Shown here: positions 40,127 to 48,355 of the stretch, piece after piece | Numbering within the stretch: the first letter of the stretch is position 1 | Layout of the letters: every line of letters starts with the position of its first letter | Virus record (IMG/VR): IMGVR_UViG_3300037502_002304 | Coordinates: 26,012 to 90,011 of that record | Source: a virus | Length of the DNA stretch: 64,000 nucleotides | Reading direction: 5' to 3' (one strand) | The notes under the pieces: model-generated | Told to the model about the DNA's origin: nothing | Databases searched by the model: none | What the model saw: the letters and a program-made list of their open reading frames with translations, nothing else | Position numbers and translations under genes: made by a program

Positions 40127-40351
40127 CTAGAAGGGAAGGTCTTCTACTTCAGGCTCTCCGAAGGCTTCATCACGAAGCCTCCTGGCCTCATCAAGGGAGA
40201 CGTTGTACTCCCTTGAGAAGCGTCTGCAGATTTCGTCAACAAAGTCCGAGCTTTGTACACTTGGATCTTGCATCACTTCCTCCTCAATCTGGAGGAAGGT
40301 CCAAGATGTTTCATTAATTTCCATGATACTTAGTTTTAATTGGTTAACCAT
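40127..40351 (-). CDS. Small acidic early protein (start probably MEINET)
   Basis: Behind promoter copy 9; ends EDLPF. Confidence 0.65.
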   Translation of the reverse strand: MVNQLKLSIMEINETSWTFLQIEEEVMQDPSVQSSDFVDEICRRFSREYNVSLDEARRLRDEAFGEPEVEDLPF

Positions 40352-40637
40352 CAGAACTAATATAGGGATTCGATACCCATTTTATTTTCCCTACATTAGC
40401 CCAAGCTGTACCTTACCTTTTTTACCAGGGGGTACAGCCCAAAATTTCTGAAGGGAGGGGACCACTATGCGCATTATCCCTCACACACATCATATACTAT
40501 ATTTTTACTACATATCATACACTACATTTTTCTAAAAACAGGTAGGGGGGGTCTTTTATATATATAAAAATATGGGGGGGCTCTTTCTCCTAAATTAATA
40601 TAAAGTCTATAATTTTTGCAAAAAAATTTGCATAATA

Positions 40638-40670
40638 TTTGGATATTTGAAAAATATTACTTATATTAGC
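40638..40670 (+). promoter_or_regulatory. Bacteroidota-like promoter (TTTG...TATATTAGC) starting the + strand arm
   Basis: -33 TTTG and -7-like TATATTAG; similar TTTG...TATATTTG at about 41550-41581. Confidence 0.55.
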
Positions 40671-41018
40671 GTCGTGACACTCAATACCAGAGTATCCCCT
40701 TGAAAGCCTATGCGAGTAGTGGGTAGAAGTCGGGTGGTAGCTGCAGCCTTGAAATAATAGGTAAACATAGCGGTGAGATGTCCCCGATAGTCACAAAAAT
40801 TACTTAGGGAGCCAGCTTCGAATCTCGAGAGGAGAAGTTAACAGTTGGGGCGGATAAGAGAGAAGGTAACTCTGGTGAAATTACACCGCAACGTCGTCCC
40901 TGGGTATCCTAGAAATAGGAAGCACTGCTGATGGCTTACGAAAGACCTAAGTTAATGAGTCCCGAAAAAACTGGGATATGAGTCTTTAAGGGCTCAGTGT
41001 ATCTTTTTAAAAGATACT
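40671..41018 (+). ncRNA. Candidate large structured ncRNA, about 350 nt
   Basis: GC-enriched stretch with no ORF in the track, many nested helices and one long-range 8-bp pairing (see findings). Confidence 0.55.
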
Positions 41019-41053
41019 AAACAGTTACTAACAATTACTTAAACTTTTAAGTT

Positions 41054-41449
41054 ATGAGAGATATTAAAAGAATTATTATTCACTGTAGTGATTCAGATAA
41101 TCCTAAACATGATGATATATCTGTCATTGATCAGTGGCATAAAGAAAGAGGTTGGAAAAAAGTAGGTTATCACTACTTTATACAATCTGATGGTAATAAA
41201 CAAGTGGGTAGAGATATAGAGGAAGTTGGGGCTCATTGTTATGGTTATAATGAAGATTCTATAGGTATTTGTCTTCATGGTAAGAATCACTTTACTAAAG
41301 AACAGTTTATAACATTAGCAGAACTTATTAAGGATATAAAAGATAAGTTTAGTATTTCAGAAGTAGAAGGACATAATCATTATAATAAGCATAAGACCTG
41401 TCCTAATTTTGACGTTAATTGGTTTAAGAAGACATATTTATACAGATAA
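41054..41449 (+). CDS. N-acetylmuramoyl-L-alanine amidase (T7 lysozyme-like endolysin)
   Basis: IIIHCS, GYHY, GAHC.GYN..SIGICL, GH...KTCPNF. Confidence 0.92.
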   Translation: MRDIKRIIIHCSDSDNPKHDDISVIDQWHKERGWKKVGYHYFIQSDGNKQVGRDIEEVGAHCYGYNEDSIGICLHGKNHFTKEQFITLAELIKDIKDKFSISEVEGHNHYNKHKTCPNFDVNWFKKTYLYR

Positions 41450-41497
41450 CATACTTATCTCTAATACATCCCAACAAGGTTACCCAAGCATTTAAAT

Positions 41498-41529
41498 CCC
41501 TAGGTAAAACGTTACTTAGGGATTTTTTT
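41498..41529 (+). terminator. Rho-independent terminator
   Basis: CCCTAGGTAA-aacg-TTACTTAGGG-ATTTTTTT. Confidence 0.75.
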
Positions 41530-41603
41530 ATAAAAAATATTACAAAATATTTGCATATATAAGAAAAAATACTTATATTTGTACTGTAATTAAAGAATGG
41601 TAT

Positions 41604-41993
41604 ATGGATGGGAAAGTAGTTAAATATAAACTACCTGATGTTAGATTAGGTATAGATGATTTAAAATCAGAATATGCTTTTGTATCAGCTGACCAAGGTG
41701 GGGGGAGATATACAAATTCAGTAGAAGAATATAAAAATAGTGGAGGGTGGTTAATATGTATATTTCCTGATATTAACCCATACGATCAAGAAGCTGTTAA
41801 TAAAGAAGCTGCTAGAAGAGCGGATTTTAATAGAAAGTATATTGAGAGTTTGAAAAAATCAGGAGAATATGGGAGAATAGTAGATGGTGGTTATATGTAT
41901 TTAAAACATTGTGATAAATATGATAATCCAGTTAATAACAATGAAACGTTAGAAAATTATAGATTAGCAATCTTAAATTTTTCAGAAGAATAA
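41604..41993 (+). CDS. Hypothetical protein
   Basis: ORF downstream of promoter. Confidence 0.65.
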   Translation: MDGKVVKYKLPDVRLGIDDLKSEYAFVSADQGGGRYTNSVEEYKNSGGWLICIFPDINPYDQEAVNKEAARRADFNRKYIESLKKSGEYGRIVDGGYMYLKHCDKYDNPVNNNETLENYRLAILNFSEE

Positions 41994-42750: not shown

Positions 42751-43104
42751 ATGGAGACAGGCAACAATCAAAAAGTACAACAGTACGCAACAGATTTGAA
42801 TAAAGTAAAGGACATTAAAAAGGTAAATATAGCTCCAGGACATGTAATGATTGAGTTAATCCAGAAGAAAGATAGTAAGATTATCCTTCCTGAAGGTTCT
42901 GGAGTTAACTCTCTAGTAATAGCTAAAGTTGTTAAAGTTGGGGAGAATGTAAAGACAGTAAAGACTGGAGATATTGTATTAGAAGTTAAATCATTTGGTC
43001 CACATTCTTTTTCTAGATGTAAAAAAGATGATAAAATTTATCTTGTAACTGACCAATATAATATTTTATTATGGACTTCCTTAGATAATTACGAAGCTAA
43101 GTAG
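42751..43104 (+). CDS. GroES/Cpn10-like co-chaperonin
   Basis: SKIILPE mobile loop; AKVVKVGENVKTVKTGDIVL. Confidence 0.7.
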   Translation: METGNNQKVQQYATDLNKVKDIKKVNIAPGHVMIELIQKKDSKIILPEGSGVNSLVIAKVVKVGENVKTVKTGDIVLEVKSFGPHSFSRCKKDDKIYLVTDQYNILLWTSLDNYEAK

Positions 43105-43121: not shown

Positions 43122-43191
43122 AGCTGGTTGGTGTAAGTAGGATAACACGCTGGATATTCCAGAGATATAGGATCGAATCCTATACCAGCTC
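43122..43191 (+). tRNA. Atypical tRNA-like gene with shortened anticodon arm (undetermined identity)
   Basis: Acceptor AGCTGGT/ACCAGCT, D-stem GTGT/ACAC, T-arm ATAGG-ATCGAAT-CCTAT; anticodon arm only 13 nt (CTGGA-TAT-TCCAG); no encoded CCA. Confidence 0.6.
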
Positions 43192-44220: not shown

Positions 44221-44484
44221 TTGTTTATGCAGAATCTTATACAAAGACAAGTTAGAGATTTGATTAAAGAGATAGCTAAGGAATTTAATTTACCTTATTC
44301 TACTACTGAAGAAATAATATTCTCTCAATTTGAGTTTGTAAAGCATGCTATGTCCAAGGGAGAGAAAGGTAACCCTGATACCTTTGAAACTATTCTTTTA
44401 AGAAGATTAGGTACATTTGAGGCTTCTAAAAATAAGATTAACTATATGACAGCTAATAGTAAAAAAGGCAAGAAAGATGCGTAA
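44221..44484 (+). CDS. HU/IHF-like DNA-binding protein
   Basis: LIKEIAKEFNLP....EEII...F......M.KG......I.LRRLGTF. Confidence 0.75.
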   Translation: MFMQNLIQRQVRDLIKEIAKEFNLPYSTTEEIIFSQFEFVKHAMSKGEKGNPDTFETILLRRLGTFEASKNKINYMTANSKKGKKDA

Positions 44485-45055: not shown

Positions 45056-48000
45056 ATGGTAAATAATGATAATTTTTTAATTAAAGAAATACCGATATTC
45101 CACCCAATTTCACAGAAATTTGAGCGTATAAACTTTTTTAAAGATATTAAACGTAAGATGTTTGAGGGGATGTGGTCTGGTAACAGATGGTGTCCCCCTG
45201 AATTATTTTTTCACGTAAATTTAAGTACCATACAGTTTTTAGGAGGTGGTAGAAAAGTTAGTGGTATAGGAAGGCCATGGTTCCGTGATATAGAATGGGA
45301 AAAAGCCTATATTTATACAGAAGCATGTGGATTTAGTGGTTTTAGAGATGACCCTGAATATACTTGTTTAAGAGAAGTTCAGGAGATGACTAAAGAAGAG
45401 ATTTATAATGAATTTTGTCTAGATCATCATGGTAATCTAATAGAAGATAATTATAAAGCCTTATTTAAAAAGGATGGGTCTCTAAAGAAATATATGCCTG
45501 CTAGAGAATATCTATGGCGTACAGATATGAACTCTTCTTTTGGCCCTCATATGTACCTAAATCAAGCTAAGAACGTTGTAGATTTTGAAGGCAGAGGATG
45601 TCTCGCAGAGGGAACTGAAGTTTTAATGTATGATGGTTCCATTAAAAAAATAGAGGATATTGTGATAGGTGATGAATTAATGGGTAAAGACTCCACATGT
45701 AGAACCGTGTTGGATATCCACTCTGGAGAAGATTATCTGTATACGCTGAGGCATTCAGACAAGAGCTTTGATGATATCACTGTTACAAAAGATCATAGGG
45801 TTTCTATAAAAAAGAGGTGTTACAACAATGGTAAATATGTAAATGGTAAAAGGACTAATGGAACTTACCATTATGAGTATGTTGACTATACTGTTGAGGA
45901 ACTTAAAAATGTAGAGAGTCAAGCATCTTTTAAAGATGTTTATCATAGATATAAACCAAATATTAGTTTGGAGTTTAAGAATAGTAAGACACCAACAATA
46001 GATCCTTATTATTTTGGACTTTGGTTAGCTGATGGCAGAAGCAATTGCACCTCTATTAAAACTACTGATCCAGTTTTATGGGAATACTTAGAGAATTTCG
46101 CTAAGGATAATAAAATTGATTATAAAGTATCCATTACAAAGGCTGCCTATAACCGAAAAGAAGCTAGAGAGTATTATTATAAAGATAATTATTTTAGACA
46201 ATGTTTTAAAGACTATGGATTACTTTATAAAAAAGGTTGTGTTCCTGATAAATATATACCAAATGATTTTTTAACTGCTACCAAAGATGTTAGACTACAA
46301 TTGCTTGCGGGTATTATTGATGGGGATGGAACCTATGATACTAACAGAAAACATTTTGTAATATGTGTAGGACTGAATAAAGACTTGGCAAATTCTTATT
46401 TAAGGCTAGTACAGTCATTGGGATTTAGAGGTAGTTTAACTTCTAGGAATAGAAAGGGTTACAAAAAAATTTTCATGGTTAGGGTAAGTGGTAATATAGA
46501 GACAATACCAACCAAGCTTTATAGAAAGCAAGCATCTAAAATTATACATAGAGTAGATTTAAATAGTTCTTCTTTTAAAATAGAACCTAAAGGATTTGGT
46601 AAGTATTACGGATTAGTGGTAGATGTAGATGGAGAATATCTGCTAAAAGATTTTAGTGTAGATCATAACAGTGGAAAATCGTATTGGGCATCCTCTTGTA
46701 TTCAACACAATCTACTTACTGATGGTGCCAGAAGTTATGATGCTTATTTAGAAGGACGTAAGACTGGTAACCTTAAATCTATTTCTCAGACTCTAGTAGG
46801 AGCTATAGAAGCTAAGTATAGCATGGATTTGCTAGATAAAGTTAAATTCTCTCTAGAACACCTTCCTGGAAAACTTACTATTCGCATTAATGGGGAGGAT
46901 AAAGACTTTCCATCACCTCTAATGCCTGAATTATCAGGTAGTTGGGCTCCTGCTAAATCTATAAGAGATACACTTTCTGGAAGTAGTATTGTACATCGTA
47001 CCTTCCAAGATAATCCATTGGCTGCTAACGGTACTCGTCCTAATAGAGCTTTTATAGAAGAGGTTGGTTTTATGAGTAACATACAGGAGGTACTTGGTGC
47101 AGTAGAAGCTACACAGCCTAATAAACAGACTAATAAATATTTACCTATATATATGCTTGGTACTGGTGGTTATACTACTACTGGTACTGCTATCTGGCTT
47201 AAAGAAATCTTTTATAATCCAGAAGCATTTGATTGTTTAGCTTTTGATGATGTTTGGGAAAATAAAGGTAAGATAGGATATTTTTTACCAGCTACTAAAA
47301 GCCAAAATGATTTCAAAGAAGGGCCTAATCTTATATCTAATGAAGAAAAGGCTTTAGAATCTATAATGAAGGCCAGAGAAAAAGCTAAGTCTTCTAATAA
47401 TAAAGTAAAATTACTTACTGAAATTATTAACCAACCTATTAAACCTTCTGAAGTATTTAAAACTATAGAAGGTAATTTCTTTCCTACTGAAGAACTAACA
47501 GAAATATTAGCAGATTTAGAATCTAAAGAATATCTATTGAATTCTACTCATAGGTATGAATTTAACATTATTAAAGGGAAAGTAGTTCCCAAAGTATCTG
47601 ATAAACAGCCGATACGGGAATTCCCGCTTCGGAAAGGATTAGAAATGGATGCTTGTGTAGAAATATTTGAGCTTCCTAAGAGAGATAAAGATGGGAATAT
47701 ACCTTATGGTAGATACTTAGCTGGTTGGGACCCAGTAGAAACAGATGGTAATGAAGATACTAATCAATCATTACAGTCATTAATAATATTAGATTCATGG
47801 ACAGATAGGATAGTAGCTGAATATACTGCTAGAACCTATATATCAGAAGAGTATTATGAACAAGCTAGAAGGCTATTAATGTTTTATAATGCTATATGTA
47901 ATTATGAAAGTAACATAAAAGGGCCTTATGGATACTTTAAAAATAAGAATTCATTACATTTATTATGTGATACTCCTGAAATTCTAAAAGATGAGTCTTT

Positions 48001-48355
48001 AATTAAAACTTCTAATATAGGCAATAAATCTAAAGGAACTAGGACTAATGCCAGTATAATTGACTGGGGATTAAGGTTAGTATTAACTTATTTAGAGACT
48101 CAAGCTTATGATAAGCCTGAAGGATATAGAAACATGGATACCATTAAGTCTCCTGCAATACTAAAGGAGCTTATTTCCTATTCTCCTGAAATAAATACAG
48201 ACCGTGTAAGTGCTTTAATAATGTTAATGATTCTTAGAGAAGATAGAGCTCGTATTACAGATATAAGTAGGAGGGAAAGAATCAAAACTAAAGCTAATGA
48301 TAGATTTTGGAAAAAACACTTTAATAAAGCATTAAAAATTCCTAATTATAGATAA
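45056..48355 (+). CDS. terL: Terminase large subunit with intein
   Basis: Spliced Walker A GRG|SGKSY; Walker B-like FIEEVG; GTGG; nuclease GWDP, YESN, NTDRVSA. Confidence 0.9.
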   Translation: MVNNDNFLIKEIPIFHPISQKFERINFFKDIKRKMFEGMWSGNRWCPPELFFHVNLSTIQFLGGGRKVSGIGRPWFRDIEWEKAYIYTEACGFSGFRDDPEYTCLREVQEMTKEEIYNEFCLDHHGNLIEDNYKALFKKDGSLKKYMPAREYLWRTDMNSSFGPHMYLNQAKNVVDFEGRGCLAEGTEVLMYDGSIKKIEDIVIGDELMGKDSTCRTVLDIHSGEDYLYTLRHSDKSFDDITVTKDHRVSIKKRCYNNGKYVNGKRTNGTYHYEYVDYTVEELKNVESQASFKDVYHRYKPNISLEFKNSKTPTIDPYYFGLWLADGRSNCTSIKTTDPVLWEYLENFAKDNKIDYKVSITKAAYNRKEAREYYYKDNYFRQCFKDYGLLYKKGCVPDKYIPNDFLTATKDVRLQLLAGIIDGDGTYDTNRKHFVICVGLNKDLANSYLRLVQSLGFRGSLTSRNRKGYKKIFMVRVSGNIETIPTKLYRKQASKIIHRVDLNSSSFKIEPKGFGKYYGLVVDVDGEYLLKDFSVDHNSGKSYWASSCIQHNLLTDGARSYDAYLEGRKTGNLKSISQTLVGAIEAKYSMDLLDKVKFSLEHLPGKLTIRINGEDKDFPSPLMPELSGSWAPAKSIRDTLSGSSIVHRTFQDNPLAANGTRPNRAFIEEVGFMSNIQEVLGAVEATQPNKQTNKYLPIYMLGTGGYTTTGTAIWLKEIFYNPEAFDCLAFDDVWENKGKIGYFLPATKSQNDFKEGPNLISNEEKALESIMKAREKAKSSNNKVKLLTEIINQPIKPSEVFKTIEGNFFPTEELTEILADLESKEYLLNSTHRYEFNIIKGKVVPKVSDKQPIREFPLRKGLEMDACVEIFELPKRDKDGNIPYGRYLAGWDPVETDGNEDTNQSLQSLIILDSWTDRIVAEYTARTYISEEYYEQARRLLMFYNAICNYESNIKGPYGYFKNKNSLHLLCDTPEILKDESLIKTSNIGNKSKGTRTNASIIDWGLRLVLTYLETQAYDKPEGYRNMDTIKSPAILKELISYSPEINTDRVSALIMLMILREDRARITDISRRERIKTKANDRFWKKHFNKALKIPNYR
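45599..46669 (+). mobile_element. Intein (357 aa) with LAGLIDADG endonuclease
   Basis: Starts CLAEGT; block B TKDH; GLWLADG and LAGIIDGDG; ends DHN followed by +1 Ser. Confidence 0.92.

Follow-up and report, generated by a model that had tools for sequence, protein, structure and literature searches.

A two-domain structured RNA ahead of the late genes of a crAss-like phage, a candidate gate for late transcription

What occupies the gap between the two divergent gene arms of the environmental virus genome deposited as IMG/VR record IMGVR_UViG_3300037502_002304? The part of this record analyzed here, called the window throughout, comprises 64,000 bases (26012-90011 of a 90,011-base record that is estimated to be 82% complete). 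Its genes are located on the minus strand left of about position 40351 and on the plus strand from 41054 on, with the terminase gene 4.4 kb downstream of the gap. A first-pass annotation, made from the letters alone, had proposed that this gap encodes a large, multi-domain and uncatalogued phage RNA on the plus strand which heads the late (packaging and structural) arm, and our comparative analysis supports this proposal. Judged from covariation among relatives, the segment from 40671 to about 41008 (+) is a two-domain structured RNA of about 330 bases. With regard to its role we put forward, with a probability of about 40%, that the RNA may act in cis as a gate for read-through into the late genes.

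Structure and covariation of the RNA

In the window, the promoter region and the RNA are organized as follows.

40638-40669 (+): promoter; TTTG at 40638-40641, a spacer of 20 nucleotides (nt) and TATATTAG at 40662-40669 (1 mismatch to TAnnTTTG)
40674-40794 (+): domain 1, three-way P1-P2-P3 junction
40674-78/40790-94 (+): P1, GTGAC/GTCAC
40679-93 (+): local hairpin, ACTC 40679-82/GAGT 40690-93, found only in the window and L150/L151
about 40696-99/40721-23 (+): P2, with an internal UUGAAAG..hairpin..AGUAG region
40708-40719 (+): small hairpin of the first-pass annotation, CTAT-GCGA-GTAG
40724-29 (+): junction UAGAAG
40729-34/40783-88 (+): P3, including TCGGG 40730-40734/CCCGA 40783-40787
40740-44/40770-74 and 40746-49/40759-62 (+): P4, two nested helices with the loop UGAAAUAAU
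40795-40801 (+): A-rich linker (C)AAAAAU, with AAAAAU at 40795-800; included in the pattern by which the family was retrieved
40802-40952 (+): domain 2, closed by P5
40802-08/40946-52 (+): P5, ACTTAGG/CCTAAGT
40811-14/40932-35 (+): GCCA/TGGC, inside domain 2
40816-38 (+): variable hairpin, inside domain 2
40842-40845/40924-40927 (+): CAGT/ACTG, inside domain 2
40847-53/40894-900 (+): P7, GGGGCGG/TCGTCCC
40857-60/40870-73 (+): AGAG/CUCU, invariant helix
40874-77/40884-87 (+): P9, GGUG/CACC, covarying hairpin
40907-20 (+): UCCUA-GAAA-UAGGA hairpin, inside domain 2
40959-40977 (+): 3' hairpin 1, UCCC/GGGA stem with an A-rich loop; predicted fold
40979-41008 (+): 3' element, a hairpin at 40979-40996 with UAAGGG in loop and 3' arm, then the U-rich tail GUGUAUCUUUUU
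40999-41017 (+): 3' hairpin 3, GUAUCUUUU/AAAAGAUAC; predicted fold

The case for a conserved fold is carried by compensating base changes. For domain 1 a model termed R2 was built from three relatives (L010, L145 and L169) with a hand-written structure of P1, P2, a small P2a and P3, the window being left out. When run over 40 sources it recovered exactly the 20 family loci and none of the 20 others, which include the chance pattern matches L172, L185 and L214, and in the window it gave a sole match at 40686-40802 (37.7 bits, E 1e-5). The covariation test used 35 R2 matches, 33 of them distinct. In their alignment, which is fitted to the model and hence favors the structure, 92.8% of the cells hold standard pairs compared with 73.6% in shuffles (none of the 500 reached the observed value) and about 28-52% with slid partners; these slid controls and an earlier result with 15 rows (91.7% versus 75.7%) agree with it. 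Both sides of a pair are changed in 109 cells as against 31.8 expected, and such changes are seen in 13 of the 19 pairs, including 6/6 pairs of P1 and 4/5 of P2. P3 is nearly invariant and always paired, two of its pairs being G-U in 25 and U-G in 14 of the 33 rows, respectively. Since such pairs would be mismatched on the other strand, the plus strand is the folded one. Covariation, which the first-pass annotation had suggested as a check, is thus present for P1, P2 and P3. Independently of the model, the 3' strand of P1 has an exact 5-nt complement 95-143 nt further upstream in 19 of 20 loci, and in the copy from a bacterial genome (G107, see below) the otherwise invariant P3 is altered, by eye, from G to A on one side and from C to U on the other.

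The whole RNA could be assessed in a subset of the family termed type A, for which five rows are available, L150 and L151 among them differing at 2 bases. RNAalifold predicts 48 pairs with 97.1% of cells paired, compared with 87.0% in column shuffles and 40-47% with slid partners, and 17 of the 48 pairs are changed on both sides, a count that favors itself as the structure was derived from the same sequences. The covarying elements in these rows are P4, P5, P7, P9 (GGTG/CACC becoming GGCG/CGCC) and the TCCTA hairpin. Near-identical strains of the phage were found in contigs of four metagenome runs from four studies (landfill, fertilizer, compost and bioreactor). In one contig of run X6, the changes A40802G and T40952C occur together, so that the outermost pair of P5 is G-C instead of A-U; an extra A at 40964 in the X6 strain falls in the loop of 3' hairpin 1 and leaves its stem intact. 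Of the further strain variants, C40826T falls in the variable hairpin, and T40956C and G40980A lie 3' of domain 2. The runs that hold the phage also hold other family members, noticed as loose ends at window positions 40721/40790 and 40864/40906. These comprise a new type that matches the domain-1 core only (X2, X3) and L145-like members (X2, X5, X6); several predicted carriers of the RNA thus co-occur in one sample.

The helices named in the first-pass annotation are present in the window, most of them being kept by compensating changes in relatives, and so are its three 3' hairpins, between 40959 and 41017. Some details need revision. The stem CTAT-GCGA-GTAG exists, but its closing pair is broken by G40719A in X6; the model hairpin P2a at this place, which may not be the same stem, has 84.6% of its cells paired and is gapped in 20 of 33 rows. 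CAGT/ACTG can form in the window but is, by eye, not kept in L145 and L010. An 8-bp pairing between the two domains (ACCAGAGT at 40686 with ACTCTGGT at 40869) has to be given up, as both halves lie in local hairpins. Its 5' half, ACCAGAGU, is the 3' arm of the ACUC/GAGU hairpin, which reads CCUU/AAGG in L150 and is absent from L010 and L145; its 3' half, ACUCUGGU, is split between the invariant AGAG/CUCU and GGUG/CACC, the latter changing to GGCG/CGCC. An alternative 10-bp pairing in the window, TACTTAGGGA/TCCCTGGGTA, is by eye not kept in L010 and was treated as chance.

The expectation that the RNA would fold better than shuffled sequence was not borne out: its minimum free energy is -93.4 kcal/mol versus -90.08 (standard deviation 4.95) for shuffles, which corresponds to a z-score of just -0.67. 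Of 100 shuffles, 25 fold at least as well, and the opposite strand has a z-score of -0.82. This value is what speaks for a chance fold, or for an element that acts as DNA and not as RNA, such as an origin, an operator or a pac site. Strand-specific G-U pairs, compensating changes in four helices across 33 distinct sequences and the silence of the model in 20 control loci, three of them chance pattern matches, leave such a reading with hardly any credibility, and because the covariation is strong the energy test was not counted against the RNA.

Architecture and distribution of the family

Throughout the family the order of elements is promoter, P1-P2-P3 junction, CAAAAAU linker, domain 2, hairpin with AAGGG and U-rich tail. 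An R2 match together with linker, P5 and 3' element served as the working definition of a member, and the RNA is present as one copy per genome. Domain 2 ranges from about 55 to about 190 nt. It is framed by P5: UAUAA (UA or GA in type A) comes after the 5' strand of this helix, and the 3' strand stands between GAAGU-like bases on its 5' side and UUAAA on its 3' side; the corresponding frame in the window is gaaaga-CCTAAG-ttaat. Among 39 distinct tails, P5 with the GARRN flank occurs in 26 (1.3 expected from shuffles) and the 3' motif [AG]GGG-N3-12-UAU(R)UY in its strict form in 19 (1.6 expected); several other tails contain looser variants of the 3' element by eye. Invariant unpaired bases comprise CAGAAG, GUCCCCGAUAG, CAAAAAU, UAUAA and GAAGU, and the A run of the linker (positions 126-129 of the stretch) is invariant in a 16-sequence alignment.

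A host-type promoter upstream of the RNA, as claimed in the first-pass annotation, is plausible. A promoter scan gives a sigma-70-like site, TGGATA-16-TATATT, at 40640-40667, and the promoter stretch of the window aligns with those upstream of the RNA in L010, L145 and L150. The box TATATTAG comes close to TAnnTTTG, which we take to be the -7 box of Bacteroidota; the assignment to this phylum stands with that assumed consensus. Of 38 rows, 17 have a perfect TAnnTTTG shortly before P1, which begins a few bases past the -7 box. Further upstream, window positions 40470-40600 contain a G-poor stretch (CACACACATCATATAC...) and two G7 runs just ahead of the promoter, and G runs are similarly placed upstream of the equivalent site in L010, L161 and L164. 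These features could be early terminators of the opposite strand or a signal for a polymerase of the phage itself.

At the other end of the RNA, the hairpin at 40979-40996 has 7 pairs, 3 of them G-C, and is followed by GTGTATCTTT, which fits the form of an intrinsic terminator; the motif of the 3' element reads AGGGCTCAGTGTATCT at 40989-41004. The 3' element (40979-41008) is likely the 3' end of the RNA or an attenuator. The region 40300-41700 holds 2 terminator-like sites where shuffles hold 0.9 (standard deviation 1.0), which is weak evidence, and in the family the element conforms to a loose hairpin-plus-T rule in 9 of 38 rows. The equivalent 3' hairpins in L145 and L150 have a different stem sequence. 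Two other interpretations of the 3' element were discarded. A repeated phage promoter does not fit with AGGGN{5,10}TATRTY, which is seen 5 times in the window (6.2 expected) and not at gene starts, and an AUG/AUA opening a conserved small open reading frame (ORF) is at odds with frames and lengths that differ among L177, L189 and L300 by eye.

The relatives were found by several routes. With the terminase as anchor, L010 (nhmmer E 1.1e-21, one of 13 loci) and L145 (E 4.5e-31) were obtained, and a conserved protein of 126 amino acids led to L149-L152 (one sequence and a 2-base variant) and to the divergent L157. In the type A relatives the promoter region and the RNA align, but the DNA after the RNA does not. 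A domain-1 pattern, GGGT..TCCCCGNNANT..CAAAAAT, retrieved 27 stretches in viral contigs, and the type A hidden Markov model matched 24 of the 26 new loci; the same pattern hit at least 120 stretches in bacterial and archaeal genomes, and among the matches listed only L300 and L224 are real. A second pattern, from P3 through the linker to UAUA, gave at least 118 stretches and 105 new loci, of which the covariance model matched 19 of the first 100 and nhmmer 22 of the 105. The full-length type A model R1 returned nothing beyond the nhmmer matches. The DNA pattern GTAACTCTGG..GTCCCT hit at least 116 stretches, only the already known L010 contig being real among the matches listed, and AGGTAACTCTGGNGAAA hit 13 stretches with zero new members. 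The amidase described below yielded 2 unrelated loci as anchor, an ORF of 129 amino acids none. A blastn search ('distant' setting) of GenBank phages with the RNAs of the window, L177 and L174 gave no match; phiCrAss001 and phi14:2 had no match to the RNA, and three other records had one match each. Relatives in which the anchor protein was present and the RNA model found no match are L013, L144, L148, L008, L154, L156 and L158-L168. In L161 a different non-coding unit of about 200 nt (about 585-835, +) occupies the place of the RNA, between TATATTTG and a hairpin-plus-T8 terminator; it may be an analogous but unrelated RNA.

When the window was compared with Rfam 15 (4227 models) at the gathering threshold, only a tRNA at 43122-43191 was reported. 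For the region 40200-41300 at E values up to 10 there were 8 matches, all far below gathering; the best, mir-729, reached 26.5 versus 61 bits and lies upstream of the RNA on the minus strand (40388-40456). Eleven family loci gave tRNAs only at gathering, and ten further loci, searched at E values up to 0.5, gave only a twister-P1-like match elsewhere in L378. The Rfam check, which the first-pass annotation had also suggested, thus places the RNA in none of the catalogued families. No description of the RNA was found in full-text searches of the literature. Its pieces may be listed without a name in the supplements of a study which gives 8,495 candidates for structured RNAs in IMG/VR, with lengths of 29-151 nt (PMC10690425), and the non-coding RNAs of UG27 reverse transcriptases are unrelated (PMC9226505). 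On these comparisons the RNA is a new, uncatalogued family.

The same searches bear on the suggestion that the element is a self-cleaving or processing ribozyme which trims the 5' end of the late transcript. Apart from its mention in the first-pass annotation, only the size of the RNA and the conservation of its junction speak for this, together with the match in L378 (2637-2700, +; 48.7 bits, E 6e-8, below the gathering threshold of 67.2), which lies 2.3 kb from the family RNA on the other strand and implies that such phages can carry ribozymes. We consider this reading quite improbable, as none of the ribozyme models in Rfam matches the element, be it that of the window or those of 21 family loci, and no conserved candidate cleavage site was identified.

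Gene context and the case for a cis-acting gate

By its marker genes (terminase, PHROG 6681; portal, 6547; major head protein, 11589) the carrier phage is crAss-like (Crassvirales), and its capsid protein is 36.7-38.5% identical to those of crAss-like gut phages (15 rows among 138 records, all below 60%). Directly behind the RNA, three features are located:

41054-41449 (+): gene for an N-acetylmuramoyl-L-alanine amidase (endolysin; PHROG 822, E 9.4e-44), the first ORF after the RNA and outside of it
41494-41525 (+): strong terminator-like hairpin of 14 pairs with a T run, directly 3' of the amidase gene
41550-41579 (+): promoter-like site, after the terminator-like site

The amidase gene starts 46 nt past the last hairpin of the RNA in the window. 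This proximity, and the amidase homologue downstream of the RNA in L150, speak for a leader that regulates the endolysin gene specifically, a regulatory leader for the endolysin being one suggestion of the first-pass annotation. The relatives contradict it. In L150 another ORF lies between RNA and amidase; no amidase follows the RNA in L010, L145 and L157, and tblastn detected no homologue of the window's amidase in the other types searched. Instead the RNA is followed by small ORFs in L010, by a TnpB-like ORF in L145 and by unrelated genes in other types, so that an endolysin-specific leader is highly improbable; as the genes behind the RNA are interchangeable, gene-specific translational control is unlikely in general. 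The TnpB-like ORF of L145 (2464-3561, +) has 365 amino acids and shows, by eye, a zinc finger at its C-terminus and the motif GLDFG, which is RuvC-like; it is an insertion between the RNA, which it directly follows, and a Cpn10-like gene.

The position of the RNA, on the other hand, is conserved. Its nearest downstream ORF is on the RNA's own strand in 31 of 33 loci with data. In types D, F and G the terminase, the portal or a 676-amino-acid protein is 24-41% identical to that of the window (aligned pieces) in the same arrangement, and the RNA still precedes the terminase arm in phages that share only 24-34% terminase identity with the window (aligned pieces). Upstream, the nearest ORF among 35 loci runs opposite to the RNA in 18, runs in its direction in 8 and is ambiguous in 1 (L145), with 8 lacking upstream data. 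Taken together, comparison of these loci demonstrates a real family of predicted RNAs that is strand-specific, single-copy, promoter-proximal, co-oriented with the genes behind it and tied to no particular downstream gene.

The base composition of the locus stands out as well, with 47% G+C at 40700-40999 versus 25-33% in the plus-strand genes that follow and an excess of G and A on the plus strand, and the cumulative GC skew turns here, with a minimum near 40500-40700. A turn of the skew at a strand switch, a single copy, a G-rich AAGGG motif followed by AT-rich DNA, and upstream genes on the opposite strand in 18 of the 27 loci with data would suit a primer or origin RNA, that is, a transcript from the divergent junction which stays hybridized at its G-rich 3' element and primes replication like ColE1 RNA II. 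The change of gene orientation accounts for the skew, however, and 8 of those 27 loci sit inside a co-directional array. The RNA is also present in a small chromosomal island, and its tertiary-looking invariant junctions are no known requirement of primer RNAs. We therefore regard this role as improbable.

The island copy came from a sample of 151 genomes of the class Bacteroidia, two of which contain an RNA match: the metagenome-assembled genome that holds L300, and G107. The copy in G107 is complete, with domain 1, P5 and 3' element (about 4318-4443 of L426, which is G107:C3:33000-52900). It follows a superoxide-dismutase-like gene, named by eye, and heads three small genes including an HTH_17 excisionase-like one; a resolvase gene and a large serine recombinase gene are found about 4-5 kb further on, at 9624-11961 of L426. 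The locus has the look of a small element integrated into the chromosome, perhaps a phage satellite, and suggests that the RNA element is portable between mobile elements. An RNA that heads a three-gene operon in an island is as expected of a portable regulatory leader.

Position, orientation, terminator-like end, interchangeable cargo and the island copy are the reasons for which we favor a cis-acting gate. Host RNA polymerase would start at the TAnnTTTG-type promoter and transcribe the RNA leader first. Domain 1, with its junction of invariant bases, and domain 2 would then form a receptor for a trans-acting factor; a protein of the phage, a small ligand and the polymerase itself are conceivable. 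Depending on the receptor's state, the polymerase would either terminate at the AAGGG hairpin and U-rich tail (40979-41008) or continue into the late genes. Such a gate would be of the attenuation or antitermination type and in this respect comparable to lambda PR'-6S-tR' or HK022 put, with a fold that is unrelated to theirs and much larger.

Several observations weigh against this proposal. The sequencing runs listed as containing the phage include no RNA run, and start, end and read-through of the transcript are predictions. In 7 of 38 rows, types F and G among them, the RNA is followed by another perfect TAnnTTTG; the next gene there has its own promoter and the RNA looks separate. In the window, the terminator-like and promoter-like sites behind the amidase gene imply that the RNA's promoter need not feed the whole late arm, and RNA and amidase may form a separate unit. 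The island operon consists of only three genes and has no obvious need for processive antitermination. A search of the phage record (82% complete) gave no NusG-like gene, a Pfam scan of 10 neighboring ORFs returned only Cpn10 and a sub-threshold HU-like protein, and no candidate partner emerged. Finally, known RNA antiterminators are several times smaller than this fold.

The principal alternative is a non-coding RNA that stands alone and acts in trans. It would have a promoter and a terminator of its own and a fold that binds a protein or forms a particle, for example as a scaffold, as a subunit of a ribonucleoprotein or as a decoy that draws off a host factor or a defence. The bracketing of the RNA by a promoter and a terminator-like 3' element and its ornate architecture with many invariant unpaired bases are explained equally well in this way, and the second TAnnTTTG directly after the RNA in some rows and the single copy per genome are likewise in keeping with it. 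Less expected are the strict co-orientation with downstream genes and the promoter-proximal place across very distant phages and the island, yet synteny is generally conserved in crAss-like phages; moreover, no co-occurring partner protein was found in the stretches examined. We hold the stand-alone RNA to be a serious, if tentative, possibility.

Some neighboring features of the window deserve mention in their own right. Between the RNA and the terminase gene, a Cpn10/GroES-like protein (42751-43104, +; PF00166, 21.5 bits, barely above the cut-off) and an HU-like DNA-binding protein (44227-44484, +; PF00216, 22.0 bits versus a cut-off of 22.4) are conserved. The tRNA match at 43122-43191 (+) scored 45.7 bits with Rfam, ARAGORN found zero tRNAs across the whole window, and the match may be an atypical tRNA. 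The large terminase (45056-48355, +) has 1099 amino acids versus about 733-754 in L010 and L145. According to tblastn, its residues of about 1-181 and about 540-1099 are adjacent in relatives, which indicates an insertion of about 350 amino acids in the window; the insert has weak PHROG matches to a terminase and a primase family, and our guess is an intein or an element of the homing-endonuclease type.

Relation to known systems and implications

In lambdoid phages the late promoter PR' is followed by a leader of about 194 nt ('6S') and the terminator tR', which is read through with Q. The locus described here resembles this arrangement in that a constitutive host-type promoter is followed by a non-coding transcript ending at a terminator-like hairpin before lysis, packaging and structural genes. 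It differs in that a covarying RNA of 250-330 nt is conserved, whereas in lambda the leader has no conserved fold of several helices and Q is loaded at a site on the DNA; no Q-like protein was identified in the phage, no search being aimed at Q. The put RNAs of phage HK022, of about 70 nt with two stem-loops, and EAR are RNA-based processive antiterminators. Like HK022 putL/putR and EAR, the RNA is promoter-proximal, folded and on the same strand as a gene array, and it could act in cis on polymerase. Its three-way junction domain, second domain and 3' element of at least 280 nt together do not correspond to the two stem-loops that define put, there is no sequence or model similarity to put, and action on polymerase is putative. 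The 5' leaders of Bacteroides capsule operons need UpxY antiterminators, which are NusG-like. They share with our RNA the host phylum, as far as the promoter type indicates it, and a long untranslated leader that decides on read-through; the comparison is by description only, and in the phage record, as stated, no gene of the NusG family was found.

Among large phage-borne RNAs of intricate structure, GOLLD (RF01998) and ROOL (RF03087) likewise have an unknown biochemical role. They differ by the lack of a covariance-model match, and the RNA reported here is about 2-3 times smaller, belongs to another host phylum and has a fixed promoter-proximal place. A riboswitch with a terminator platform would be similar in having a conserved, P1-closed and aptamer-like 5' domain, a variable 3' part and a terminator-like end, but no known class matches in Rfam, and domain 2 is independently closed with conserved flanks of its own. 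The packaging RNA of phi29, pRNA, is also built around a three-way junction and, like our RNA, is a phage RNA encoded near packaging genes. For pRNA, too, there is no Rfam match; crAss-like phages have canonical terminases, and no intermolecular loop complementarity was seen.

The family represents a new class of medium-to-large structured RNA, and at least 33 distinct domain-1 sequences should suffice for structure modelling. More far-reaching, and in our view rather doubtful, is the idea that two-domain RNA receptors of 250-330 nt serve as a master gate of late expression in many environmental crAss-like phages. They would do so either as riboswitch-like sensors of a ligand that reports the state of infection or as RNAs that reprogram the RNA polymerase of Bacteroidota, and they would have been copied by small chromosomal islands, possibly satellites that sense the late signal of a helper phage. 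The crAss-like phages rank with the most abundant phages known, yet little is understood of how they use the host polymerase to time their late transcription. A conserved, single-copy RNA between a host-type promoter and the late genes would offer a concrete and testable handle on the timing of late gene expression in these phages.

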